The notes: a model not told the origin generated them from the sequence alone. Shown: positions 1,867 to 42,537, counted from the stretch's first letter. The stretch is DNA of 64,000 nt from an uncultured Bacilli bacterium (GCA_934101175.1 CAKOQC010000002.1:220424-284423); one strand, 5' to 3'. Program-made: numbers and translations.

Positions 1867-3684
1867 ATGTGTGGATTTGTAGGATTTATAGATAAAAAGA
1901 AGAGTAAAAAGAAAATAATTAAAGATATGGCAGATATTATTGCTCATAGAGGACCTGATAGTGATGGATATTATATAGGAGATGAATGTGCTCTTGGATT
2001 TAGAAGACTATCTATAATTGATTTAGATGGAGGAACACAGCCTATTTATAATGAAGATAATAATATGATAATTACCTTTAATGGAGAAATATATAACTAT
2101 AAAGAAATTAGAGAAAAGCTTATAAAGAAAGGTCATAAATTTAGGACAGAATCTGATACAGAAGTAATATTACATGGATATGAGGAGTATGGAGAAAAGA
2201 TACTTGATAAATTAAGAGGAATGTTTGCTTTTGTTATATATGATACTAAGAATAAGACTTTATTTGGAGCAAGAGATTTTTATGGTATTAAACCACTTTA
2301 TTATTATATAGATGATGAAGAATTTATGTTTGGATCAGAAATTAAAAGTTTTTTAGGTCATCCTGGATTTAAAAAAGAATTAAATAGAGATATGCTTAAG
2401 CAATATTTAACTTTTCAATATAGTGTAGGAGAAGATACATTTTTTAAGAATGTATATAAATTAAGACCAGGACATTATTTTAAATATCATGATGGTAAGT
2501 TAGATATTACAAAATATTATGAAATTAAAATAGAAAATGATGATAGTAAGAGCTTAGAAGAATGGAAAGATATTATTCGTAAAGAATTAAATGAATCAAT
2601 TAAATATCATAAAGTTAGTGATGTTGAAGTTGGTAGTTTCTTATCTTCAGGAGTAGATTCTTCAATAGTGGCTACACTTAGTGATGTAGATAAAACTTTT
2701 ACTGTAGGTTATGATAATAAAAAGTATAGTGAAATAGATTATGCTAAAGAACTTAGTGAAAAAATTAAAGTCAAGAATATAAGTAAGAAAATAAGTAGAG
2801 AAGAGTATTTTAAGAACTTTCCTAAGATACAATATTATATGGATGAACCATTGGCAGATCCTTCAGCAGTAGCATTATACTTTGTGGCTAATACAGCTAG
2901 TAAACATGTAAAAGTAGCTTTATCAGGAGAAGGGGCAGATGAAATATTTGGAGGATATAATATATATCATGAACCTTATTCAGTTAGTTGGTATAATAAA
3001 ATACCTTATCCAATTAGAAGAGGTATTGGAGTATTAGCATATCCTTTAAGAAATCATACAGGATTTAATTTCTTAGTTAGAAGAAGTAAGAAGTTAGAAG
3101 ATAGATATGTTGGTAATGCTTTTATATTTGAACCTGGGGATGCTAATAAGATACTTAGTTATACTGATAAACATGATTTTAGAGAATTAACTAAACCTTA
3201 TTATGATAAGATTAAAAATTATGATGATGTTGCTAAGATGCAATATATAGATTTTAATTTTTGGTTAATTGGGGATATATTGCTTAAAGCAGATAAAATG
3301 AGTATGGCTAATTCTTTAGAGGTAAGAGTACCATTTTTAGATAGACCTTTAGTTAATGAAGTAATTAATATACCTTCTAAATACAAGATAGTAGGTAATC
3401 AAACCAAGTATGCTTTTAGAGAGGTATGTAAAGAAGAGTTACCTGAAAAATGGGCTGATAAGAAGAAATTAGGATTTCCTGTTCCTATTAGAGAATGGAT
3501 TAAGGAAGAAGATATTTATAATAATATACGTAAGACATTTGAAGATGGTGGTGAATTCTTTAAGACAGATAGAATTATTAAATTACTAGATGATCACTGT
3601 AAGGGAAAACATGATAATAGTAGGAAGATATGGGCAATATATTCTTTCTTAATATGGTATCAAGAATATTTTATAAATAGATAA
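1867..3684 (+). CDS. asnB: Glutamine-hydrolysing asparagine synthase family amidotransferase (AsnB paralogue 1)
   Basis: Start moved to ATG 1867 so that Cys is residue 2 (MCGFVGF, the Ntn nucleophile); GAGGT SD upstream. Motifs 'RGPDSDG' and 'RRLSIIDL'; PP-loop 'SFLSSGVDSS'. Paralogue of 35893..37728. Confidence 0.9.
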   Translation: MCGFVGFIDKKKSKKKIIKDMADIIAHRGPDSDGYYIGDECALGFRRLSIIDLDGGTQPIYNEDNNMIITFNGEIYNYKEIREKLIKKGHKFRTESDTEVILHGYEEYGEKILDKLRGMFAFVIYDTKNKTLFGARDFYGIKPLYYYIDDEEFMFGSEIKSFLGHPGFKKELNRDMLKQYLTFQYSVGEDTFFKNVYKLRPGHYFKYHDGKLDITKYYEIKIENDDSKSLEEWKDIIRKELNESIKYHKVSDVEVGSFLSSGVDSSIVATLSDVDKTFTVGYDNKKYSEIDYAKELSEKIKVKNISKKISREEYFKNFPKIQYYMDEPLADPSAVALYFVANTASKHVKVALSGEGADEIFGGYNIYHEPYSVSWYNKIPYPIRRGIGVLAYPLRNHTGFNFLVRRSKKLEDRYVGNAFIFEPGDANKILSYTDKHDFRELTKPYYDKIKNYDDVAKMQYIDFNFWLIGDILLKADKMSMANSLEVRVPFLDRPLVNEVINIPSKYKIVGNQTKYAFREVCKEELPEKWADKKKLGFPVPIREWIKEEDIYNNIRKTFEDGGEFFKTDRIIKLLDDHCKGKHDNSRKIWAIYSFLIWYQEYFINR

Positions 3685-3691
3685 TGTTTAC

Positions 3692-3724
3692 GACTATTGA
3701 CAGTTTTTGTCGATAGTCTTTTAT
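3692..3724 (+). terminator. Rho-independent terminator after asnB paralogue 1
   Basis: 11-bp stem GACTATTGACA / TGTCGATAGTC (one G-U pair), 5-nt loop, then TTTTATT. Confidence 0.7.
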
Positions 3725-3913
3725 TATTTTACAGAGAAGGTGTATGTTTGTATACAAACAAATGTATTAGTTTATATTGACAAATATGATTAATTATGAT
3801 ATCATGTTAATATGAGATAGATAAGAGTGTTATAAGTCTTTTTAAATACTTGGGAATTCTTTACAAAGTGTTAGAAGGGTGTTATAATTTTATCATAAAG
3901 AGAGGATGTAAAG

Positions 3914-6154
3914 ATGGCTAAGAAGAAACAAAAAAAAGAAAAAGAAAAGTTTGAATATGGAAATGAAATAATTGGAGTTATTTTAATATTATTTTCAATT
4001 ATAGGAATGCTTGGATATGGAAGAGCAGGTAATTTTATTAGAAGTTTTGCCGTTTTTTTAGTAGGTGTGGCATATTTTCCTCTATTATTAATATTTTTGA
4101 TATTGGGTGTATATTTAATTGTTAAAAGAAATACTCCAAAGATGATATCTAGAACTTCTTTTGGTATATATTTAATTATTATAGCTTTACTTACATTACT
4201 TCATATGGAGTATACTAGTAAGGTTGAGGGAGTAAATGTTATAACAGAAACATTTAAAACAGTAATGTTATCATTTAAATCAATAGATGTAATTAAAAAT
4301 TGTGGTGGTGGAATGGCCGGTGCTATTTTATCTTATGTATTTAATTGGGCATTTGCTGATGGAGTAATTATTGTAATAATAACATTAGTTATTCTAGGAA
4401 TGATCTTAATACTTAATAAATCATTATTTGAAACAATATCTTCATTCTTTGCTAAAATTAAACCAAAGAGAGATAAAACTAAGAATAGTAGTATAAAGAT
4501 AGAACAAGAGGAGGAGAAGTCAGAAGAAATTCCTGATAAGAGAATAGTTATATCTTCAATAGATGAACTTACTAATAAAAAAGAAGAGAAGGAAGAAGTT
4601 GTTGATGAAGATATTCCTATTAAAAAGAATGATGATAAGAATAGTGATAATGCATTAATTAATGCGAATGTTAATAGAGAAGAACAAGAGGTTGTTAAAA
4701 ATACATCATATAAGTTGCCTTCAATTAATATGTTAAAGACAATTAAAAATATAAATAGTAAAGAGAATGAAATTAATGCTAAAAATAGTATTCAAAAACT
4801 AGAAGAAATACTTAAAGTATTTGAAATATCTGGAAAGATTGTACAAGTAAATATTGGTCCTACAGTTACACAATATGAACTTGATTTAAAGGCAGGTACT
4901 AAAGTTAATAAATTATTAGGTATTCAAAGAGAGATAGCTTTAGCAATGGCTGCTAAAGATGTGAGAATACAAGCACCAATACCTGGTAAGAACACTATTG
5001 GTATTGAACTTCCTAATAAAGTTAATGCTAGTGTATCTTTTAAAGAGGTACTTAGTAATATGCCAGAAGTTAATGAGAAGACTTTGCTTGCAGTAGGTCT
5101 TGGTAAAGATATTATGGGTAAAGTTAAATGGTGTGAAATTAATGCAACACCGCACTTGTTAGTAGCTGGATCTACTGGTAGTGGTAAATCAGTTTGTATT
5201 AACTGTATAATTGCTTCAATACTTATGAGAACTAAACCAGATCAAGTTAAATTAGTATTAGTCGATCCTAAGAAAGTTGAATTTTCTATGTATAATGGAG
5301 TACCACACTTACTTAGTCCAGTTGTTACTGATGCTAAGAAGGCTTCAATAGCTTTAAAAAATATTGTTGGAGAAATGGAACGTAGATATGAACTTTTAGA
5401 GCATACCAAGAATAAGAATATTACATCTTATAATAAGTTTTGTGAAACTCATACAGAGTATCAAAAGTTACCATATATCGTAGTTATTATAGATGAGTTG
5501 GCTGACTTGATGTTAGTAGCTGCTAAGGAAGTAGAAGACTCAATAATGCGTATTACACAGATGGCCAGAGCGGCAGGTATTCACTTGATTGTAGCTACAC
5601 AGAGACCTTCAACAGATATTATTACTGGTGTTGTTAAAGCAAATATTCCATCTAGAATTAGTTTTGCAGTATCTTCACAAATAGACTCTAGAACTATTTT
5701 GGATATGGGTGGTGCTGAAAAACTTCTTGGTAAAGGTGATATGTTATTCTTACCAATGGGAGAAAGTATTCCTATGAGAGTTCAAGGTGCTTATGTATCA
5801 GAAGAAGAATTGCAGAAATTAGTTGATTATACAATTAGTCAACAGAAAGCTGTTTATGATGAGACACTTACTATAGATAAAAGTGAGGAAAGTGGTAGTA
5901 AGAGTGTACCTGATGATGATGGATATGCTTCAGCAGAAGAATATGATGATCCAATATATAATGAAGTAGTAGACTTTGCTGTTAGTACAGGTAAAATAAG
6001 TGCTTCTTTAATTCAAAGAAAATTTAGATTAGGATATAATAGGGCTGCTAGAATTATAGATTTACTTGAAGAAAGAGGAATTATTGGACCTCAAAATGGT
6101 TCTAAACCAAGAGAAGTACTAGTTAAATTAGAAAAACCTTCAGATGATGAATAA
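3914..6154 (+). CDS. ftsK: DNA translocase FtsK/SpoIIIE
   Basis: N-terminal TM helices and an acidic linker. Single RecA-type motor with Walker A 'GSTGSGKSV' and Walker B 'VVIIDELADLM'. C-terminal gamma winged helix 'RKFRLGYNRAARIIDLLEERGIIGP'. Confidence 0.95.
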   Translation: MAKKKQKKEKEKFEYGNEIIGVILILFSIIGMLGYGRAGNFIRSFAVFLVGVAYFPLLLIFLILGVYLIVKRNTPKMISRTSFGIYLIIIALLTLLHMEYTSKVEGVNVITETFKTVMLSFKSIDVIKNCGGGMAGAILSYVFNWAFADGVIIVIITLVILGMILILNKSLFETISSFFAKIKPKRDKTKNSSIKIEQEEEKSEEIPDKRIVISSIDELTNKKEEKEEVVDEDIPIKKNDDKNSDNALINANVNREEQEVVKNTSYKLPSINMLKTIKNINSKENEINAKNSIQKLEEILKVFEISGKIVQVNIGPTVTQYELDLKAGTKVNKLLGIQREIALAMAAKDVRIQAPIPGKNTIGIELPNKVNASVSFKEVLSNMPEVNEKTLLAVGLGKDIMGKVKWCEINATPHLLVAGSTGSGKSVCINCIIASILMRTKPDQVKLVLVDPKKVEFSMYNGVPHLLSPVVTDAKKASIALKNIVGEMERRYELLEHTKNKNITSYNKFCETHTEYQKLPYIVVIIDELADLMLVAAKEVEDSIMRITQMARAAGIHLIVATQRPSTDIITGVVKANIPSRISFAVSSQIDSRTILDMGGAEKLLGKGDMLFLPMGESIPMRVQGAYVSEEELQKLVDYTISQQKAVYDETLTIDKSEESGSKSVPDDDGYASAEEYDDPIYNEVVDFAVSTGKISASLIQRKFRLGYNRAARIIDLLEERGIIGPQNGSKPREVLVKLEKPSDDE

Positions 6155-6189
6155 AAAAATATTGATGTTTGTTACATCAATATTTTTTT
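6155..6189. terminator. Bidirectional terminator between ftsK and the convergent hydrolase-LXG gene
   Basis: Stem AAAAATATTGATGT / ACATCAATATTTTT with loop TTGTT. An A-run on one side and a T-run on the other allow use on both strands. Confidence 0.7.
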
Positions 6190-6197
6190 GGGTTGTA

Positions 6198-8567
6198 TTA
6201 TACTTTATTATAGTAATTAGAGTATACATCATTAAAGTCTTCAATTGTATGACCACCATAATAGCTATCATTAAATATTACTTTTATGTTACCATTATCT
6301 TGTATTACTTTATCAAAACCATCAAGATTTTGATATTTTTCTACTATTTGATTATACATGGAGTCTGCTGTAGCTTTATCGTGAAAATCGTAATAAAATT
6401 CAACGCCATTAACGTTATCGTTTTCGTGACTGATAATTAATTTGCATTCGTTATTAACGTTGTATACATCTTGTTTGTCATTGGTTGTAATGTCATTATA
6501 TGCAGGAAATTCATTAACTTCAGTTTTTTCTTCAGTAACATTTTCTTCTTTAGTCTCTGTATTGCTTTTTAGTACATCACCAATTTCATTTACAGTAGTA
6601 TTTTCTTCTGTAGCATTTTCATTGGTATTGTTTGAATTGTTATTATATGAAGTATCGTTTAACTCTTCAGTATCTAGATTTCCTGTTTCGCCAACTGGAG
6701 TTTGAGGAATGTTGGCATTTGTGTCTTCGACTATGTCTGGTTGTTCTGCTTCAGTATCTCTTATGCCTTCGGCGGCTTCGTTATCAGCATCTTTTAATCC
6801 TTCTAATTGCTCTAAATAATTTTCAGCTTCTGTTATTACTTCGTTACATAATTTGATAGCTTTTTCTAATTGTGGAATTAGGGGGTTAGGTACTTTTACA
6901 TATGTAGCATTGCCATCTTTATCATATCCAGAAAATTCATCTACATATGCTGAAGCATTAGCTAGTGCTGTTTCTAATTCTTCTAATTGAGTTTTGAGAT
7001 TGGTTATTTCTTGTTTAACTTCTGGTATTTTAGAAGTATCTAATTCATCATATTGCATGTATTCAAGAAGTTTGTTATACGCATTAATCATACTATCAAT
7101 TAATTTACTGGCATAGTTTTGTTTATCTTGACATATTTCACTATATTCACTTACTTTATTTCTTACTTTATTCCAGGCTTCGCCTTCTAATTTAGAACTA
7201 GAGTCACTAATAAATTTATCTAGTTCACTTTGAATATCATATGTATCATTAATATCAGCCATTAAATTACTGATTAAAGCATTTCCGGTAGAAGCAGCTT
7301 CCATTAATTTTTCACGGCTTATTTTAATATCACCAGAAGTGTCAGAAAAAATATTTAATTCAGGGATATTTTGATAGAAGTTCTTATATGAACTTAAATC
7401 AACACTGTCAATGGCACTAAAATAGTCTCCAATAGAATTGGCTAAATCACTATCAAGATTACTCATAGATTCAGCTATTAACATGATATTTTGGTTAGTT
7501 GCACTAAGAGAACCTAGGAAGTTTTTGCTCATAGCAGAATAATTTGCGAAAGCTTCATTAGCAGCTGAAAACGTTTGTGATCCATCAGTGGGAATAGCTA
7601 CTTTATAATTTGATAGGAGATTAGTTTTCATAATGGCATTGTTAATTAATGATGTGTATTCTTCAACGAAGGCGTAATCAACAGATATGATATTACTCAT
7701 ATTTTCTTTGTCATGATTTTTTCCTTTGATAATTTCTTCTGTCTTTTCGTATGATGTATCTTTTTTTCCGGTACCATCATTAGTAAAGAATCGTAGTTTT
7801 TCTTTGAAATCTTCAGGAATATCCCCCTTACCAATTAGGTAATTAAAATAATTACCTTGAGTATATGGGTTATGACAGTTATTATCATGACTTCCGCCAT
7901 TATATTCTACCATTATATTATTTACGCCACCATTTTTACGGTATTCTTCCATGGTTTTAAAACAAGTTTTACCTTCTGAGTCGGCTAATCCAATTAGAGT
8001 AACATTGTTGTCAGCTAAAGCTTTGAATTGTTCATCTGTCGGACTTAGGGGCTTGCCACCTTGTTCAGTTTGCCATATTTGTTGCGATTCATTCCAAGCA
8101 CAAGTATTTATGTTGATTCCATAATCGTTTGTATTAGCGGCAATTGTAACATCAAGAGCTCTAGCGCCACCAACACTTACGCCGGCCGCAGTGATATTAT
8201 TCCAATCACCAGGAATATTTTTTGAAAAATCGGCTAAATCTTGACAAATTTTGTCTCCATAATAGCTGTTTACTTTAGGAACAATAATAATGGCATCAGT
8301 ATTATATTCGCCAGCGGCCATAATTGGAGTTGCTTGAATTTGTTCTTGTCCTGGAATGTATACAATTACTGGGGTATTATTGTCTATAACATCTGGAGTA
8401 TATATGTTATATGTAATATCGTTATCGCTAGAAGTTTTAACACAATTCCAATAATCTCCATATGGATGTTGGGTTTTAATACCATTTATTTCTCCAGTTT
8501 CAGCTACATTTAGGGAACGATTTAATTCATTTACATCAGTATTTTCTATATTTTCTGTATTCTCCAT
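6198..8567 (-). CDS. Alpha/beta-hydrolase + LXG-like helical domain + low-complexity linker + small C-terminal domain (polymorphic-effector-like, paralogue of 39417..41471)
   Basis: Start placed at ATG 8567 (AGGAGG 6 nt upstream). No signal peptide. Hydrolase signatures 'TPVIVYIPG', nucleophile elbow 'GVSVG' and 'GGSHDNN'. Helical segment 'SKLEGEAWNKVRNKVSEYSEICQDKQNYASKLIDSMINAYNKLLEYMQYDELDTSKIPEVK' resembles the LXG motif region. An Asn/Glu/Thr-rich linker is followed by about 105 aa of unrelated sequence. Confidence 0.6.
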   Translation of the reverse strand: MENTENIENTDVNELNRSLNVAETGEINGIKTQHPYGDYWNCVKTSSDNDITYNIYTPDVIDNNTPVIVYIPGQEQIQATPIMAAGEYNTDAIIIVPKVNSYYGDKICQDLADFSKNIPGDWNNITAAGVSVGGARALDVTIAANTNDYGININTCAWNESQQIWQTEQGGKPLSPTDEQFKALADNNVTLIGLADSEGKTCFKTMEEYRKNGGVNNIMVEYNGGSHDNNCHNPYTQGNYFNYLIGKGDIPEDFKEKLRFFTNDGTGKKDTSYEKTEEIIKGKNHDKENMSNIISVDYAFVEEYTSLINNAIMKTNLLSNYKVAIPTDGSQTFSAANEAFANYSAMSKNFLGSLSATNQNIMLIAESMSNLDSDLANSIGDYFSAIDSVDLSSYKNFYQNIPELNIFSDTSGDIKISREKLMEAASTGNALISNLMADINDTYDIQSELDKFISDSSSKLEGEAWNKVRNKVSEYSEICQDKQNYASKLIDSMINAYNKLLEYMQYDELDTSKIPEVKQEITNLKTQLEELETALANASAYVDEFSGYDKDGNATYVKVPNPLIPQLEKAIKLCNEVITEAENYLEQLEGLKDADNEAAEGIRDTEAEQPDIVEDTNANIPQTPVGETGNLDTEELNDTSYNNNSNNTNENATEENTTVNEIGDVLKSNTETKEENVTEEKTEVNEFPAYNDITTNDKQDVYNVNNECKLIISHENDNVNGVEFYYDFHDKATADSMYNQIVEKYQNLDGFDKVIQDNGNIKVIFNDSYYGGHTIEDFNDVYSNYYNKV

Positions 8568-8781
8568 ATAAGACCTCCTCATATTTTATTATAGGTAAAT
8601 TTTATCATATATTAGAGAATTTATCAATCATATTAAAAATATTTGTTGTTTGAAATTGAAAACGTATAAATATAGTATATTTTAAAATTATCTTGAATAT
8701 TATATTGTTTTATATATATTTAAATAAATTATTAGTAATTTTATAAAGGATGTGATACAATTATAGTAGGTGATTATTGAT

Positions 8782-9865
8782 ATGGATAAACATGAACTTG
8801 AAACAAAATATAATGAATTATTAATAACTGTTAAAGATATATGGAGGTCTCTTTGACTTAGATAATAAAATTATTAGAAAGAAAGAGATAGATAAGATTA
8901 TTAATGAAGAGGGTTTTTGGAATAGAATAGATAAAGATGATATTCTTAAAGAGAATAGTTTTCTTAATACAATTATTGATATGGTTAATAAGATTATAAA
9001 GAAGATTAATGATAATATAGATATTCTTAAAGAAGAGGTGGATATTGAATTAATAGATATACTTATTACTGAATATAAAGAGTTAGAATCTGATGTAGAA
9101 AAACTTAGAATAGAGACTTATTTATCTCATGAATATGATAAGAATAATTGTATATTAGAAATTCATTCTGGAGCAGGTGGGACAGAATCTTGTGATTGGG
9201 TAGCAATGTTATATAGAATGTATACAAGATATTTAGTAAAAAATGGATATAGTTATCAAGAGATAGATAAACAAGAAGGTGAAGAAGTAGGACTTAAATC
9301 AGTGATGATATTGATTAAAGGAAGATGTGCTTATGGTTATTTAAAGGGAGAAACTGGTGTACATCGATTAGTTAGAATTAGTCCTTTTGATGCAAATAAG
9401 AGAAGACATACAACATTTGCTTCAGTATTAGTAACACCAGAATTTGATAATAATATTTCAGTAGATATTAATGATAATGATTTAAGAGTAGATATATATA
9501 GAAGTAGTGGACCAGGAGGTCAAGGAGTAAACACTACTGATTCAGCTGTTAGAATTACACATATACCAACAGGAATTGTTGTTACTTGTCAAAATGAGAG
9601 AAGTCAAATTAGAAATAAGCAGATAGCTATGGAAGTTCTTAAAAATAAATTATACGCATTAGAACTTGATAAGAAGAATAATGAACTTAATGGACTTAAG
9701 GGTGAACAGATGTCAATTGGGTTTGGTAGTGGTAAAAGAAGTTATGTAATGTGTCCATATACTTTAGTTAAAGATAATGAATCTGGATATGAAACAGCGA
9801 ATGTTTTGAAAATATTAGATGGGGAAATTGGAGAAATGTTAGAGTGGAATATTAGGAGGCAGTGA
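8782..9865 (+). CDS. prfB: Peptide chain release factor 2, expressed through a programmed +1 frameshift at 8851-8857
   Basis: The frame-0 ORF from ATG 8782 (24 sense codons) meets an in-frame TGA at 8854-8856. A +1 slip on CTT continues in the frame of track ORF 8981..9865. 'RISPFD' (SPF) and 'SGPGGQGVN' (GGQ) motifs are present. Confidence 0.95.
8843..8857 (+). other. RF2 autoregulatory +1 frameshift site (internal SD-like GGAGG, then CTT TGA C)
   Basis: Sequence is GGAGG TCT CTT TGA C. This is the canonical arrangement of an SD-like element 3 nt upstream of the slippery CTT, followed by a weak TGA-C stop. Confidence 0.9.
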
Positions 9866-14996: not shown

Positions 14997-16745
14997 ATGA
15001 TAGGGAAAATAGTAAGTATAAAAGATGCCCATATATTTGTCAATTTGGCAGTCAATATATACAATATAGAGAATATAATTGGTAAGAATGTTGTATTTGA
15101 CAATAAGTATATTGGGGAAATTATAAATTTATCTAATTCAACAGCAGAAATTACTTTAATTGGAGAAATTAATAATGGTTATTTTATACCAGGTAATTTA
15201 AGTATGCCAGCTTTTAATAGTGTTTGTAGATTAGTTACAGATGAAGAAGTAAAAATAATATATGGTGTTGATAGTAGTAAAGGTTATATTAATCTAGGAC
15301 ATTCTTTTTCTTATAGAAATTTTCCAGTAGCAGTTAATGTTAATTCCTTTTTCGCTAATCACTTTGCTATTTTAGGTAATTCAGGATCAGGTAAAAGCTA
15401 CTTTGTAACAAGATTATTACAAGGAATATTTTATGATGCTAGGAAGTTACCATATAATGCAAATATATTCTTATTTGATGCTTATGGAGAGTATCAACAA
15501 GCATTTAATGCAATTGGTCAAGTAAATAGTAATTTAAATTATAGAGTAATAACTACTAATTTGAGAGATAATACTTATGAGAAATTATTTATTCCTTTTT
15601 GGTTTTTAGGAGTAGATGATATATGTTTATTACTAGATGTAGATGATACTAGACAAATACCAATAATAGAGAAAGCATTAAAATTAGTACTATACTTTTC
15701 TTTAGAAGATGCTTCAATTATAGAGAAGAAGAATGATATTATAGCTAGATGCTTATTAGATGTAATATTTTCTGGTAATAGTAGTAATGATATTAGAAAT
15801 AAACTTACTACCATTATGTCTAAATTTTATACAAAAGATATTAATTTAGAGATAAATCTTACTAAAGGAGGATGGACTAGAAGTATTAGACAATGCTTAT
15901 TTGTAGATAATACTGGAAAGTTTGCTGATATAGAAGTAGTAATTAATTATTTAGAACAGTTTTGTTTAAATAATTTTGAACTTACGATGCCAGATGGTAG
16001 TTATATGTATTCAATTAAAGAATATTATAATGCTTTGGAATTTGCCTTAATTAGTGAGGGAATATTTAGTAGTAATAAAGTATTTGATTATGCTAATATA
16101 CTTAAGATAAGACTTAATTCACTTATTAATAGTGATTATGTTAATTATTTTAATTGTGAAAGATATATGACAAAAGTAGATTATATTAAGTATATATTAT
16201 ATAAAGATAATAAGAAGTATCAGATTATTAACTTTAATGTTAATTCAATAGATGATAGATTTGCTAAAGTTATAGTTAAGATATATTCGAAGATGTTATT
16301 TGATTTTATAACTAGTAATCCTAATAGAGCATCGATGCCATTTCATATAGTATTAGAAGAAGCACATCGTTATATTCAAAATGATATAGATAGATTAATT
16401 CTTGGATATAATATATTTGAGCGTATTGCTAAAGAAGGAAGAAAGTATGGAATATTACTAGGAATTATTAGTCAGAGGCCTTCAGAGATTAGTGAAACAA
16501 TGATAAGTCAATGTTCTAACTTTGCAATATTTAAAATGTTTCATCAAGTAGATATGGGATTTGTTTCTAGTTTAGTGCCAGGAATAAGTGATAGTACAAT
16601 ACAGAAGATTAAAATGTTATCACCAGGAACTTGTATGCTATTTGGAAATGCATTTAAAATGCCAATATTGACAATTATAGATAAACCTAATCCAACACCA
16701 CATAGTGATAGTTGTAATATAGATAATACATGGTATGTTAGTTAA
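14997..16745 (+). CDS. HerA/FtsK-superfamily (DUF87-type) hexameric ATPase, solitary
   Basis: AGGAGA SD. N-terminal HAS-barrel-like 'IGKIVSIKDAHIFVNL'. Walker A 'GNSGSGKS', Walker B 'HIVLEEAHRY'. C-terminal 'GIISQRPSEISETMISQCSNFAIFKM', typical of HerA. Confidence 0.8.
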   Translation: MIGKIVSIKDAHIFVNLAVNIYNIENIIGKNVVFDNKYIGEIINLSNSTAEITLIGEINNGYFIPGNLSMPAFNSVCRLVTDEEVKIIYGVDSSKGYINLGHSFSYRNFPVAVNVNSFFANHFAILGNSGSGKSYFVTRLLQGIFYDARKLPYNANIFLFDAYGEYQQAFNAIGQVNSNLNYRVITTNLRDNTYEKLFIPFWFLGVDDICLLLDVDDTRQIPIIEKALKLVLYFSLEDASIIEKKNDIIARCLLDVIFSGNSSNDIRNKLTTIMSKFYTKDINLEINLTKGGWTRSIRQCLFVDNTGKFADIEVVINYLEQFCLNNFELTMPDGSYMYSIKEYYNALEFALISEGIFSSNKVFDYANILKIRLNSLINSDYVNYFNCERYMTKVDYIKYILYKDNKKYQIINFNVNSIDDRFAKVIVKIYSKMLFDFITSNPNRASMPFHIVLEEAHRYIQNDIDRLILGYNIFERIAKEGRKYGILLGIISQRPSEISETMISQCSNFAIFKMFHQVDMGFVSSLVPGISDSTIQKIKMLSPGTCMLFGNAFKMPILTIIDKPNPTPHSDSCNIDNTWYVS

Positions 16746-39416: not shown

Positions 39417-41471
39417 ATGGATAATTATAATTTTACGGAAGAAGATTTTACTCCTGGTTTTCATAAGAAACAAATACAAGGTAATGATGGCCAATATTAT
39501 ACAATGAGATGGACAGTTCCAGATGGTGGAATTGATGAAAATACACAGCCTTTATTATATGTTGGCGGCGGAGGCGGTGGACTAGATGGTTTTGATGGAA
39601 CTCAACCGCAATATTTTCGTGATGAACTTACTAAAAATGGTAATGCTAATGCTTTTGTTGTAAATATACAAAGTGGTTATGGTAATAAAATAGCAGGATT
39701 ATCTGATCAAATTAATGGACTAATTGATAGTGCATATAGTAATGCTTCAGTAGATGTTCCAAAGCAAACCAGTTATTCTGGGTGGAGTGCAGGAGCGAAG
39801 GGAGCTTTAGAAGCGGCAGCTTTAACTATTAAAGCAAATCCTGATAATAATAATATAAATGTAGTATATGCTGTTGACTGGGGAGATGATGTTTCTAATG
39901 GATCAGGACCTAATGGCTTTTCTGTTAATGATGCTAATAATTTAGAAATGTTAAATACCTTGGCTGATAACGGAACAACTTTTGTGGCTATTGAACCTAG
40001 ATTATCAGCAGATACTGCTAATAGTGATGCATCTTTAGCAAATCGTTTAGAGGCACTAAAGATGGAAGTAACGCCTGGTGAAGAAGTAGATGCAGGCTTC
40101 TATGTTCCTAAGGAATATGTTAGATGGTCAGAAAAGTCTGATTTAACAATGGTTTTTGCTACTTATGAGTCTAGTGGTAATGAGGGGGATGACCATGCGG
40201 TAGCTCCAAGTGTTTTTGGTGGATCAATGATACCTAGTATTACCGGTGGGGATAAAAATAAGGCTGGAAATGTAGAAAAAGATATTTCTGGTTATAAGTT
40301 TGATTATAATTCATCTGCAGAAGAAGAATTTGAATATTATGCAATGAGTGATGGAATAGCAGTTCCAATATCTTATGATGAATATCTAGACTTAGTATCA
40401 GGTAAAAAGAGTGTACCAGATTATGTATCAGTTAAACGTGATTATTTAGCAAATCCTTTAGTGTCAGTAGATTATGAATTTATACAAGATGGAATGGAAG
40501 CTTTAAAGAGTTTAGCAGCTGGAATGAATATTAATAGTGTTAATAGATATATTCCAGAAGATAACGGATCAGCAACATTTAAAGTAGTTAGTGATCTTTA
40601 TAATAATTATGCAGATGCTTCTAAAGGAATAATAGACGGAGTAATGAAGTCATGTGATAGTATTATTAGTATAGCGGAATCTATACAAAACTTGGATGCT
40701 AGAATGGCTAATACTATTTGTGGACAAATAGATTCTTCGTTAGCGGCAATGGATATAGATTTTGAAAAATATAAAGAGGCATTTATTTCTTCTACTACAG
40801 ATATTAGTCAAGGTAATGAGATAAATATGACTATGGAATCATTACTTAAAGAAGTATCAGCAAATAATGAAATTATTAGTAACATGCACAAAGATATTGA
40901 GGAAACAACAAAGTTAAAGGCAGAAATAGATAAATTCATTGAAGAATCTAATGGTAAGCTTCAAGGTGAAGGCTGGGATTTAGTTAGAGATAAGATGGAT
41001 GAATACAGCGAAATGTTACAGGAGAAGAATGATTATGCAATGGAATTTGTTGATAAAACAATAGAGTCATATAAGAAATTAATTGAATACTTTGAAGATA
41101 ATGTTGTATTAGATACTTCAACAATTCCTGAAGTAAAGACTAGTATTGATAATTTAACTACACAGATAGAAATGTTAATAGCTCATATTGCTGAATTATC
41201 AGATCAATGGGAAGAAGTAACTGTTTATGGTGATGATGGTAAACCTGCAGGAACAATGTTACAAAAAGTAGATAATTCAGCACTTATAGCAGAATGTAAT
41301 GAACAATTAGATGAATGTAGACAAGTAAAACAAGAAATGGAAGCTGTTCTTGAAAAATTAGAAGGATTAAAAGGATTTGATAAAGCACTTGCAGATACAT
41401 TTACCTTCTTAGGATTAGCATCAATTTCTGCTAATAGTTTTTTAGGCGGTATGCTAGGAAGAATAGCATAA
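39417..41471 (+). CDS. Alpha/beta-hydrolase + C-terminal LXG-like helical domain with a glycine-rich hydrophobic tail (reverse-LXG effector candidate)
   Basis: No signal peptide. 'LLYVGGGGGG', nucleophile elbow 'GWSAG' (Ser codon 39786-39788) and 'GDDHAV'. LXG-like 'NGKLQGEGWDLVRDKMDEYSEMLQEKNDYAMEFVDKTIESYKKLIEYFEDNVVLDTSTIPEVK' (L515-x-G517). Tail 'FTFLGLASISANSFLGGMLGRIA'. Confidence 0.6.
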   Translation: MDNYNFTEEDFTPGFHKKQIQGNDGQYYTMRWTVPDGGIDENTQPLLYVGGGGGGLDGFDGTQPQYFRDELTKNGNANAFVVNIQSGYGNKIAGLSDQINGLIDSAYSNASVDVPKQTSYSGWSAGAKGALEAAALTIKANPDNNNINVVYAVDWGDDVSNGSGPNGFSVNDANNLEMLNTLADNGTTFVAIEPRLSADTANSDASLANRLEALKMEVTPGEEVDAGFYVPKEYVRWSEKSDLTMVFATYESSGNEGDDHAVAPSVFGGSMIPSITGGDKNKAGNVEKDISGYKFDYNSSAEEEFEYYAMSDGIAVPISYDEYLDLVSGKKSVPDYVSVKRDYLANPLVSVDYEFIQDGMEALKSLAAGMNINSVNRYIPEDNGSATFKVVSDLYNNYADASKGIIDGVMKSCDSIISIAESIQNLDARMANTICGQIDSSLAAMDIDFEKYKEAFISSTTDISQGNEINMTMESLLKEVSANNEIISNMHKDIEETTKLKAEIDKFIEESNGKLQGEGWDLVRDKMDEYSEMLQEKNDYAMEFVDKTIESYKKLIEYFEDNVVLDTSTIPEVKTSIDNLTTQIEMLIAHIAELSDQWEEVTVYGDDGKPAGTMLQKVDNSALIAECNEQLDECRQVKQEMEAVLEKLEGLKGFDKALADTFTFLGLASISANSFLGGMLGRIA

Positions 41472-41505
41472 TAAAAGAATAAATAAGTGAGAGGTGGCTA
41501 GAGGA

Positions 41506-42537
41506 ATGAAAAAAAGATCAATTTTATTAATAATATTAATGGTTGTTTCTTTTACACTTACATATATCTTTGGATATAATGGATTTAATACTTTAGTTAA
41601 AACACTAATTAATTATAAAGAGAGTAGTAATGTAGAATATAGAGTATATTTAAAAGATAATAATATATATAAAAGTAATATACTTGATATGAATAAGAAA
41701 TATATTACAGAACTTGTTGATTATATAGATATGGACTTTAATTATAAGATTAAGTTTGATAGATATATAAGTGGATATTATTCTTATCTTGTAGAAGCTC
41801 AAGTAGTAGCATATGAAGATGATATTAATGATCCATTATGGATAAAAGAATATAATGAATTAGATAGTAAAGTGGAAGTATTAAATAAAAATAAGATAGA
41901 TACTATTGATATTAAAGATACTGTTAGAATTGGTTATAAAGAATATAAGAAAGTAATAGATGACTTTAAAGAAGAATATGGATTAGATATATCTGGTTAT
42001 TTATTAGTTAAATTTAAAATGAATAAAACAGTAGACTTTAGTGGATTAACAAAAGAAGTTAATGATGATAGAATTATAAAAGTAATAGTACCACTTACTT
42101 ATGATACATTTAAAATAAATGTAATAAATGATAATAATAAGAGTGATAGTTATTATGAATTTACTACTAAGAGTGATGTTAATTATTTATTCTTAATATT
42201 TGCAGCTTTAAGTGGATCAATAGGAGTGTCATTATTAATACTAGTAGTAAAAGAAATGATAGATGTTTCTAAGATGGAAAGTAATTATAATAAAGAACTT
42301 AAAAAGATACTTAAAGATAATAGAGATATAATAGTTAATGTTAATAAATTATACAATAAAAAGAAATATAACTTAATATATGTAGATAGTTTTATAGAAC
42401 TTATGGATGTATATAATAGAGTAGAAAGTCCTATATCATTTAAAGAAATAGAAAAAAATAAAGAAGCAATATTCTTAATTATTGAGAATGATAATGCTTG
42501 GATATATCGTTTAGTTAATAAGAAGAAAGAAAAGTAG
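41506..42537 (+). CDS. Two-TM membrane protein of unknown function, co-oriented just downstream of the hydrolase-LXG gene
   Basis: TM1 'SILLIILMVVSFTLTYIFGY'. About 200-aa extracytoplasmic beta-rich region. TM2 'YLFLIFAALSGSIGVSLLILVV'. About 95-aa cytoplasmic tail. SD AGAGGTGG. Possibly DUF5305-like (from memory, unverified). Confidence 0.55.
   Translation: MKKRSILLIILMVVSFTLTYIFGYNGFNTLVKTLINYKESSNVEYRVYLKDNNIYKSNILDMNKKYITELVDYIDMDFNYKIKFDRYISGYYSYLVEAQVVAYEDDINDPLWIKEYNELDSKVEVLNKNKIDTIDIKDTVRIGYKEYKKVIDDFKEEYGLDISGYLLVKFKMNKTVDFSGLTKEVNDDRIIKVIVPLTYDTFKINVINDNNKSDSYYEFTTKSDVNYLFLIFAALSGSIGVSLLILVVKEMIDVSKMESNYNKELKKILKDNRDIIVNVNKLYNKKKYNLIYVDSFIELMDVYNRVESPISFKEIEKNKEAIFLIIENDNAWIYRLVNKKKEK

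Follow-up and report, generated by a model that had tools for sequence, protein, structure and literature searches.

What would a protein do that bears an enzyme at its N-terminus, an LXG-like domain in its middle and a further folded domain at the end where LXG toxins usually keep their toxic part? The question is raised by a minus-strand gene located between ftsK and prfB in a 64,000-nucleotide stretch of DNA from an uncultured Bacilli bacterium (CAKOQC010000002.1:220424-284423), here called the window. Window coordinates are used throughout, and residue numbers are those of the 789-amino-acid (aa) protein under study, p1. A preliminary description had proposed that p1 consists of an N-terminal hydrolase, an LXG-like core, a low-complexity linker and an extra C-terminal domain that might act as a second, exchangeable warhead. 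The order of the four parts was borne out, and every motif quoted for it was found in p1 at the place given (Table 1). The swappable C-terminal warhead was not supported by comparison with other members of the family.

Head, linker and C-terminal domain of p1

The head was compared with its relatives in an alignment of seven family heads (A4), that of a paralogue encoded elsewhere in the window included. The G-x-S of the nucleophile elbow is invariant, an acid after a strand and an H-D-x-x-C motif are conserved, and the order Ser/acid/His is the one expected for an alpha/beta-hydrolase. In the PDB the A4 profile found esterases and lipases of the alpha/beta-hydrolase fold; feruloyl esterase 9J07 came first (E = 4.9e-5), aligned through its nucleophile elbow G-x-S-x-G. 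Pfam and NCBIfam gave no family match for the head. Judged from the aligned residues, the head of p1 is a divergent Ser/acid/His alpha/beta-hydrolase, and it is probably an esterase or lipase.

It had also been noted that p1 matches the window paralogue over both the hydrolase and the LXG-like segment. This holds for the core, where p1 aa 277-605 and paralogue residues 319-660 (in the 794-aa numbering of its longer open reading frame (ORF)) are 35% identical (BLASTP, E = 7e-49). For the head the match was overstated: BLASTP found no alignment between the two heads, and in the seven-sequence alignment they are ~21% identical, with the invariant G-x-S and largely conserved acid and His.

Past the motif EQLEGLKDAD the composition confirms the Asn/Glu/Thr-rich linker described earlier. 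Behind it AlphaFold2 predicted a compact folded domain, not a disordered tail, with the order beta-beta-beta-alpha-beta-beta-alpha. With a four-sequence alignment the mean predicted local distance difference test score (pLDDT) was 85.4 and the predicted template modelling score (pTM) 0.77; the five models range from 59 to 85. The domain has no Pfam match. Foldseek, proposed earlier as a check, returned no match at E <= 1e-3 in PDB or BFVD, and no toxin or solved fold. Kinase N-lobes share the beta3-alpha-beta2 order (Foldseek, template modelling (TM) score ~0.4, E of at least 0.07), which we took as a likeness of topology and not as homology.

The C-terminal domain was found in three lineages, represented by p1, the P0002 cluster (822 aa) and a 904-aa protein on locus L084. 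Identity among the three is 24-28% in the head, 57-64% in the core, 33-42% in the linker and 65-84% in the C-terminal domain. The L084 head could not be aligned by BLASTP to the head of either p1 or P0002. Linker length runs from 87 to 125 aa across lineages, and the linker of p1 is 33-35% identical to those of the two other lineages. A Gly-rich hydrophobic patch in the P0002 linker was considered as a conserved membrane span and rejected (it is absent from p1 and degenerate in L084). Sequence relatives of the C-terminal domain were found only behind the same core, and neither the window nor the fetched loci hold a second copy of it or a matching orphan gene. Compared in this way, no region of the protein is better conserved than the C-terminal domain, which stays with the core; the head is the variable part. 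The preliminary description had anticipated the opposite, a C-terminal end exchanged between strains while residues 1-600 stay constant. C-terminal modules are indeed exchanged in the wider family, but no case was seen in which residues 1-600 were kept unchanged.

In polymorphic toxins the payload is found at the variable end, and the constant end serves for trafficking or anchoring. The wall-binding modules LysM (in P0009) and CW_7 (in P0020 and P0021) occupy the C-terminal position in other family members. Given the conservation pattern and these modules, the best guess for the C-terminal domain is that it binds or anchors; a second warhead is unlikely. By analogy of position with the LysM, CW_7 or membrane anchor of relatives, the domain most likely binds or anchors the protein to a component of the cell envelope, and is unlikely to be a toxin.

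The helical core and the case for type VII export

Searches with whole p1 and with its parts against Pfam, NCBIfam and PHROGs gave nothing significant, a PDB sequence search with p1 alone gave no match, and a scan of a genome collection with the core alignment gave no relative. A search of 1.84 billion representative proteins with a profile built from four cores (A1) yielded 304 matches. About 40 of these hold the whole core in mid-protein, in proteins of 550-1100 aa. A further ~100 matches reach profile positions ~135-310 only. In these proteins the match lies at residues ~10-180, where LXG domains stand. Of 96 such N-terminal matches, twelve pass Pfam LXG (PF04740, E < 1e-3); P0026, matched by A1 at E = 1e-18, scores 36.4 bits against a threshold of 26.5. 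Aligned directly with Pfam LXG, core residues 161-258 fall on profile positions 29-129. Because A1 matches pass Pfam LXG, the second half of the core is, by transitive homology, a divergent LXG-like domain, as the preliminary description had proposed.

The first half of the core, a helix-turn-helix, looks like a WXG100/Lap-type hairpin fused in cis, though the evidence for this is weak. The A1 profile matched the S. agalactiae WXG100 structures 3GVM and 3O9O (E = 1e-3), with the IPxDGSxTF turn of the core aligned to the ENWDGSTF turn of the structures. Two of 41 family members matched Pfam DUF5344 (E = 0.002), that is Lap3, which serves LXG toxins as a targeting factor (PMC10801868). At its end the second helix has the pattern I-x-x-I-A-x-x-[Y/I/M]-x-x-[L/M]-D-x-x-L-A, and 40 of the 41 members have the Asp. 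This conserved ending recalls the YxxxD/E and FxxxD motifs that act as export signals in partner proteins (PMC10801868, PMC12558993). AlphaFold2 placed helices at aa 298-313 and 331-369. Unlike the free WXG100 proteins of ~100 aa, the hairpin is fused inside a 789-aa protein, and its P-x-D-G-S turn is without Trp. A match of the 41-sequence hairpin profile (A6) to the Mycoplasma arthritidis mitogen (E = 0.013) was not significant and was taken as chance.

From a 98-sequence alignment, AlphaFold2 modelled the core as one unit (pLDDT 92.8, pTM 0.87), in which both core turns fall between long helices. The highest-probability Foldseek match of this model was EspB (4WJ1), at a probability of 0.89 and a non-significant E of 0.1 (TM 0.33-0.43); the EspB entries of the PDB cover its PE-PPE domains. 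EspB, a type VII substrate of mycobacterial ESX-1, holds in one polypeptide two helical hairpins that are usually separate partners, with the turn and YxxxD motifs, and the p1 core is likewise single-chain. It differs from p1 in phylum, in secretion subtype and in having no enzymatic domain. A broad core profile (A7) searched against the PDB gave coiled-coil noise only, with EsxB at E = 0.3-0.8.

A hydrophobicity scan of p1 and the paralogue, and the relatives whose sequences were read, revealed no hydrophobic N-terminal stretch of signal-like type. From the LXG homology and the absence of another export signal we infer that p1 may be exported by type VII secretion. The plan of the family would then be a variable enzymatic head, a constant helical cassette of ~310 aa, a disordered linker and a C-terminal module, with the cassette serving as a single-chain type VII targeting unit. 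Its first hairpin, with the [Y/I/M]xxxD motif, would replace the separate partners that LXG, TslA and TslM substrates need, and this fusion in cis would explain why no partner gene adjoins the p1 gene. Export would take place with no Sec signal, the target of the head would be the envelope of the producing cell or of a neighbour, and the constant C-terminal domain would bind or anchor to the envelope. The partner role of the hairpin, the substrate of the head and the binding role of the C-terminal domain are likewise proposals. Taken as a whole, this reading of p1 as a type VII-exported reverse hydrolase with a built-in partner and a C-terminal envelope binder is in our judgement about evenly balanced between right and wrong.

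A minimal type VII core comprises an ATPase, a WXG100 protein and a YukD-like protein (PMC11217815). On locus L076 a more distant cassette relative, P0164, lies 4 kb from a secretion gene cluster. This cluster encodes a 1518-aa ATPase with FHA and FtsK_SpoIIIE domains, three helical proteins (a pair of ~100 aa, one of which matches WXG100 at E = 4.7e-5, and another of 153 aa) and a protein of 83 aa that has the size of YukD and no Pfam match.

Several results weigh against type VII export of p1 with a built-in partner. In the sequence of p1 itself, the core scores 13.4 bits with Pfam LXG (E = 0.07), short of the threshold of 26.5, and Met, not Tyr or Phe, stands at position -4 of the [Y/I/M]xxxD motif. 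The WXG100 match was lost when the PDB was searched with the A6 hairpin profile, Pfam WXG100 was matched by none of the 41 members, and hhalign detected no significant similarity between A6 and either small protein of the secretion cluster on L076. Foldseek found nothing significant for the core model, and the TelA LXG structure was absent from its top 50 matches. L076 is a distant relative, with a cassette 27% identical to that of the window paralogue. The 64-kb window contains no EssC-type ATPase, WXG100 or YukD-like gene, and no secretion, partner or clear immunity genes were found near the seven "reverse" family loci examined. The conserved housekeeping position of the glucosaminidase members (see below) agrees with an autolysin role no less than with that of a toxin. 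The binding role given to the C-terminal domain is drawn from analogy of position only.

The gene, its insertion and its relatives

The ORF list has a minus-strand frame from 8582 to 6198. Its upstream ATG at 8582 overlaps the ribosome-binding site (RBS) AGGAGG (8574-8579), which makes the ATG at 8567 the start of p1. Database protein P0001, 99% identical, has the same length of 789 aa, and the start at 8567 given in the preliminary description is thus confirmed by RBS position and by P0001. The gene converges on ftsK, whose stop lies at 6154, and prfB begins upstream at 8782 in the opposite direction. With ftsK convergent and prfB divergent, the gene is monocistronic and has nothing downstream on its own strand. 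The earlier view of a single gene convergent on ftsK across a shared 43-bp terminator region, with no downstream immunity candidate, agrees with this neighbourhood and with the hairpin in the spacer. RNAfold gave the hairpin -12.7 and -12.5 kcal/mol on the two strands, and it is a candidate bidirectional terminator; a terminator scan missed it, the stem having too few G-C pairs.

DNA homology to five close relatives ends at 6132-6156 and resumes at 8704-8831. The gap between these break points measures ~70-140 bp in the five relatives versus ~2.6 kb in the window. In nine relatives ftsK and prfB are adjacent with no p1 homologue encoded there, and none of 70 fetched loci contained one. The p1 gene is a lineage-specific single-gene insertion with its own terminator and promoter-like site, the latter a consensus match only; such sites are as frequent in the region as in shuffled sequence. 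Its G+C of 0.30 is close to that of the surroundings (window ~26%). Window FtsK is 78-86% identical to FtsK of uncultured gut metagenome-assembled genomes (MAGs) labelled Bacilli, Tenericutes or Clostridiales, and the cassette family is so far restricted to uncultured, very AT-rich gut Bacilli MAGs. Within it p1 is an accessory, self-contained member.

Domains fused to the cassette in the family include Glucosaminidase, Peptidase_C39_2, Phage_lysozyme2, Peptidase_M15_4, NlpC/P60, Amidase_2/6, LysM and CW_7, almost all of them peptidoglycan hydrolases or wall binders. The heads of "reverse" members belong to several hydrolase subtypes, or are glucosaminidases (P0003, P0009). P0015 has two enzymes, its hydrolase head and, behind the core, a glucosaminidase at the C-terminus. 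The seven "reverse" loci are single genes among housekeeping genes, and six of them are without partner or immunity genes. The seventh, L084, has three unannotated genes (3221-5343) after the 904-aa gene, encoding proteins of 221 aa with hydrophobic segments, 142 aa and 324 aa that have no Pfam match; they are possible immunity or accessory genes of the L084 head. In three genomes the glucosaminidase member keeps to the same site, flanked by a miaB-like radical-SAM gene and by frr; these include the MAG of L007, in which FtsK shares 85% identity with that of the window. The member has the look of a conserved wall hydrolase with no signal peptide, and its role may be one of housekeeping.

Table 1. 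Positions of p1, its parts and associated features. Coordinates are those of the window unless a locus is named.
Feature	Position	Strand	Basis or remark
Coding sequence of p1, 789 aa + stop	6198..8567	-	stop codon 6198-6200; ORF list, RBS, P0001
N-terminal serine-hydrolase head, aa 1-285	7713..8567	-	alignment A4 + PDB profile match
Nucleophile elbow G-V-S131-V-G (GVSVG), aa 129-133	8169-8183	-	motif search
Acid E160	8088-8090	-	alignment A4
GGSHDNN, aa 224-230	7878-7898	-	motif search
His227 within GGSHDNNC	7887-7889	-	alignment A4
Core first half, helix-turn-helix, aa 292-400	7368..7694	-	candidate WXG100/Lap-like hairpin fused in cis
Turn IPTDGSQTF	7569-7595	-	core first half
Motif IAESMSNLDSDLA	7440-7478	-	core first half
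Core second half, LXG-like domain, aa 425-600	6768..7295	-	transitive homology to Pfam LXG
SKLEGEAWNKVRNKV, aa 458-472	7152-7196	-	motif search
L-x-G turn KLEGEAW, aa 459-465	inside 7152-7196	-	motif position
EQLEGLKDAD, aa 586-595, end of LXG-like domain	6783-6812	-	motif search
Glu/Asn/Thr-rich low-complexity linker, aa 601-685	6513..6767	-	16 E, 16 N, 14 T of 85 residues
C-terminal orphan alpha+beta domain, aa 686-789 (104 aa)	6201..6512	-	AlphaFold2 fold
Promoter-like site TTGATA, 17 nt, TG-extended TAAAAT	8599..8627	-	consensus scan, 10/12 matches + TG extension
Spacer common to ftsK and p1 gene, 43 bp	6155..6197	.	hairpin 6155-6187, 14-bp stem, A-run and T-run flanks
Lineage-specific insertion between ftsK and prfB, approximate extent	6157..8750	.	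homology break points vs five close relatives
Paralogue, 684 aa	39417..41471	+	different hydrolase head, same core, short hydrophobic C-terminal tail
Paralogue elbow GWSAG	39780-39794	+	motif search
Paralogue hydrophobic C-terminal tail	41400-41468	+	motif search
L076 secretion cluster and cassette genes	L076 321-6374 and 10001-16920	n/a	cluster 4 kb upstream of two giant genes
Glucosaminidase-core-(membrane anchor or LysM) members	L002 6543-8801; L079 10001-12106; L080 4121-6226	n/a	locus survey

Several other observations were made on the relatives. Twenty-three bp downstream of the paralogue a 347-aa protein is encoded (41494-42537, plus strand), with an N-terminal membrane anchor, a second hydrophobic segment and no Pfam match. 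It could act for the paralogue alone, as a partner or an immunity protein; a family-wide immunity protein was rejected, since no homologue adjoins any other member. The C-termini of P0003 and P0008 consist of a Gly-rich hydrophobic segment, basic residues and then an acidic tail. Gly-zipper-like hydrophobic segments such as AIGGAIAGIGIAGLG and GVGLGGLGLAGAAAYG follow the core in P0002 (aa ~640-660) and stand at the C-termini of P0003, P0008 and P0007; p1 has no such segment. Glycine-zipper C-termini are reported to be the membrane-depolarising part of some LXG toxins, among them EsxX (PMC12744356). On L076 two giant proteins of 1113 and 1154 aa are encoded next to each other; the cassette is central in both, the N-terminal regions are Thr/Asp-rich and the C-terminal regions hold Pro-rich repeats (TLPYRPGEHNIEFD, ~7 copies). 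A protein of ~565 aa with an N-terminal J-domain (HPD motif) is encoded after enolase and upstream of P0002-type and P0007 members (L073 8296-9987; L086 7088-8800; L001 2-289). Its gene ends 14 bp before the family gene in L073, a gap that suggests co-transcription, and two small genes lie between them in L086. No homologue of the J-domain protein was found in the window.

The ftsK-prfB spacer is a variable spot in the clade, and other relatives hold different genes there, none related to p1: one for a 245-aa protein (L008 8264-9001), one for a 573-aa protein of no assigned function (L009 8211-9932), and two for a 165-aa membrane protein and a 196-aa protein (L014 8208-9310). The neighbouring prfB (release factor 2; 8782-9865, plus strand) carries the classical programmed +1 frameshift site CTT TGA C at 8851-8857, preceded by a Shine-Dalgarno-like GGAGG element, and because of this frameshift the ORF list shows only its second frame, from 8981. 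The site is present in L003, and L008, L009 and L014 have an uninterrupted prfB ORF of 340-349 aa. A DUF87/HerA-type ATPase gene (14997-16745, plus strand; weak FtsK_SpoIIIE match) has homologues of 42-51% identity, close to ftsK in L030 and L049, and in L076 downstream of the cassette proteins by two genes. A functional link between p1 and this gene was dropped because the neighbourhood is conserved in relatives that have no p1 gene. The ATPase is probably a conserved neighbour and not part of the system.

Alternative explanations and known reverse substrates

Could p1 be a housekeeping envelope hydrolase and not a type VII substrate at all? The cassette, although descended from LXG/WXG domains, would then be a coiled-coil stalk or regulatory arm, likened to the coiled coils of PcsB, CwlO and EnvC that dock on FtsEX, and the protein would reach the wall by another route. 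The predominance of peptidoglycan hydrolases and wall binders among the fused domains suits this explanation, as do the "reverse" members sitting singly among housekeeping genes and the constant miaB-like/frr position of the glucosaminidase member. The presence of ftsE and ftsX 3 kb from the p1 gene seemed to point the same way, but ftsEX is conserved in relatives that lack the p1 gene; its proximity is therefore uninformative, and a functional link to p1 was dropped. PcsB-, CwlO- and EnvC-type enzymes possess signal peptides, whereas p1 has neither a signal peptide nor a hydrophobic N-terminus. In the FtsEX-controlled enzymes the coiled coil precedes the catalytic domain; the order in p1 is enzyme first, helical part second. 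Homology was detected to LXG domains and not to those coiled coils, and the p1 gene is an accessory insertion absent from close relatives. We regard a housekeeping hydrolase of this kind, the main alternative, as rather doubtful. A toxin with two warheads, the head being the first and the C-terminal domain an exchangeable second, is improbable. It accounts for the position of the C-terminal domain, which is that of the usual LXG toxin, and for its being truly folded in the AlphaFold2 model; P0015 shows that two enzymes can be carried, and C-terminal modules do differ across the wider family. A polymorphic toxin tip, however, would be expected to vary, and here the C-terminal domain is the best conserved region while the head diverges or is replaced. 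Foldseek found no toxin or enzyme fold resembling its model, no catalytic motif could be singled out in its 104 aa among three diverged sequences, no immunity gene is adjacent, no orphan match was found in the window or fetched loci, and relatives mostly hold binding or anchoring modules at this position.

The discrete insertion also raises the question of a phage or mobile-element remnant captured in the chromosome, such as a tail-associated lysin or a tape-measure-like protein. Some cassette proteins contain Phage_lysozyme2, one has an SPP1_portal match, and P0003 matches phage endolysin PHROGs through its glucosaminidase domain. Against these stand the lack of any flanking phage, integrase or transposase gene, a G+C near that of the surroundings, the non-significant PHROG matches of p1 itself, and the absence of relatives among 2.9 million viral contigs scanned with the core alignment. 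A phage origin is accordingly the least credible of the explanations considered, and we think it very improbable.

If p1 is instead a type VII-exported reverse hydrolase, its nearest counterparts in architecture are TslA (PMC10730906) and TslM (PMC13560087), the only two described "reverse" type VII substrate families, of which TslA was the first. The comparison is one of architecture; among the results of the PDB sequence searches there was no solved structure under the name TslA or TslM. TslA (Tsl1, Staphylococcus aureus), like p1, has an N-terminal alpha/beta-hydrolase-type enzyme followed by an LXG-like domain, lacks a Sec signal and has paralogues in one genome. Its LXG-like domain is C-terminal, whereas that of p1 is internal and is followed by the linker and a further domain. 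TslA needs the helical partners TlaA1 and TlaA2, which have genes of their own, and has an adjacent immunity lipoprotein, TilA; the p1 gene adjoins neither. p1 differs further in the WXG/Lap-like hairpin that appears to be fused ahead of its LXG-like part. TslM (Tsl2, S. aureus) shares with p1 a lipase-type head, a linker or helical region and an LXG-like domain, and it needs a single WXG100-type partner, a stoichiometry that the fused hairpin of p1 would mimic. The genes of its partner TlaM and of its membrane immunity proteins (DUF1433) are adjacent; none adjoin the p1 gene. TslM has no domain after the LXG-like part, whereas p1 has 189 further residues (the 85-aa linker and the 104-aa domain). 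According to the TslM paper only lipases are so far known in the reverse arrangement (PMC13560087), and the p1 family differs from TslM-type lipases in having glucosaminidase heads as well (P0003, P0009).

Canonical LXG toxins (TelA-Lap3-Lap4, PMC10801868) resemble p1 in the homology of the second half of its core and in the weak Lap3/DUF5344 matches of two of the 41 members. In these toxins the LXG domain is N-terminal and the toxin C-terminal; in p1 the arrangement is reversed, with the enzyme at the N-terminus and the LXG-like domain at aa ~425-600. Their lap and immunity genes flank the toxin gene, and the p1 gene has no such neighbours. We class p1 as a variant of the reverse type VII kind and not as a member of Tsl1 or Tsl2. 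It stands apart by the internal LXG-like domain with cargo to either side, the apparent cis-fused hairpin, the lack of an adjacent partner or immunity gene, and the further conserved domain.

A wider proposal is possible, though we think it less likely than not: the cassette may be a portable, self-sufficient type VII signal that has the helical partner fused in cis to the LXG-like domain, works in mid-protein with cargo to either side, and serves a clade of small-genome gut Bacilli as the general export route for Sec-less envelope enzymes, with the C-terminal domain as a new envelope-binding or apparatus-docking module. Esterases, glucosaminidases and LysM- or CW_7-tethered proteins would all be covered by such a route. 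The C-terminal domain itself, of 104 aa, has a confidently predicted fold and no known relative.

If p1 is exported by type VII secretion, its family would add non-lipase heads (glucosaminidases), an internal targeting module and a partner carried on the same chain to the known reverse substrates, whose two families are staphylococcal-type lipases with a terminal LXG-like domain and separate partners. Searches for type VII substrates would then need changed criteria, and a candidate one-gene export tag would be available. The TslM paper (2026) leaves open whether other enzymes occur in the reverse orientation, and the p1 family bears on that question. The family also hints at a way in which wall-active enzymes may be put outside the cell by uncultured gut Bacilli, a poorly known group.

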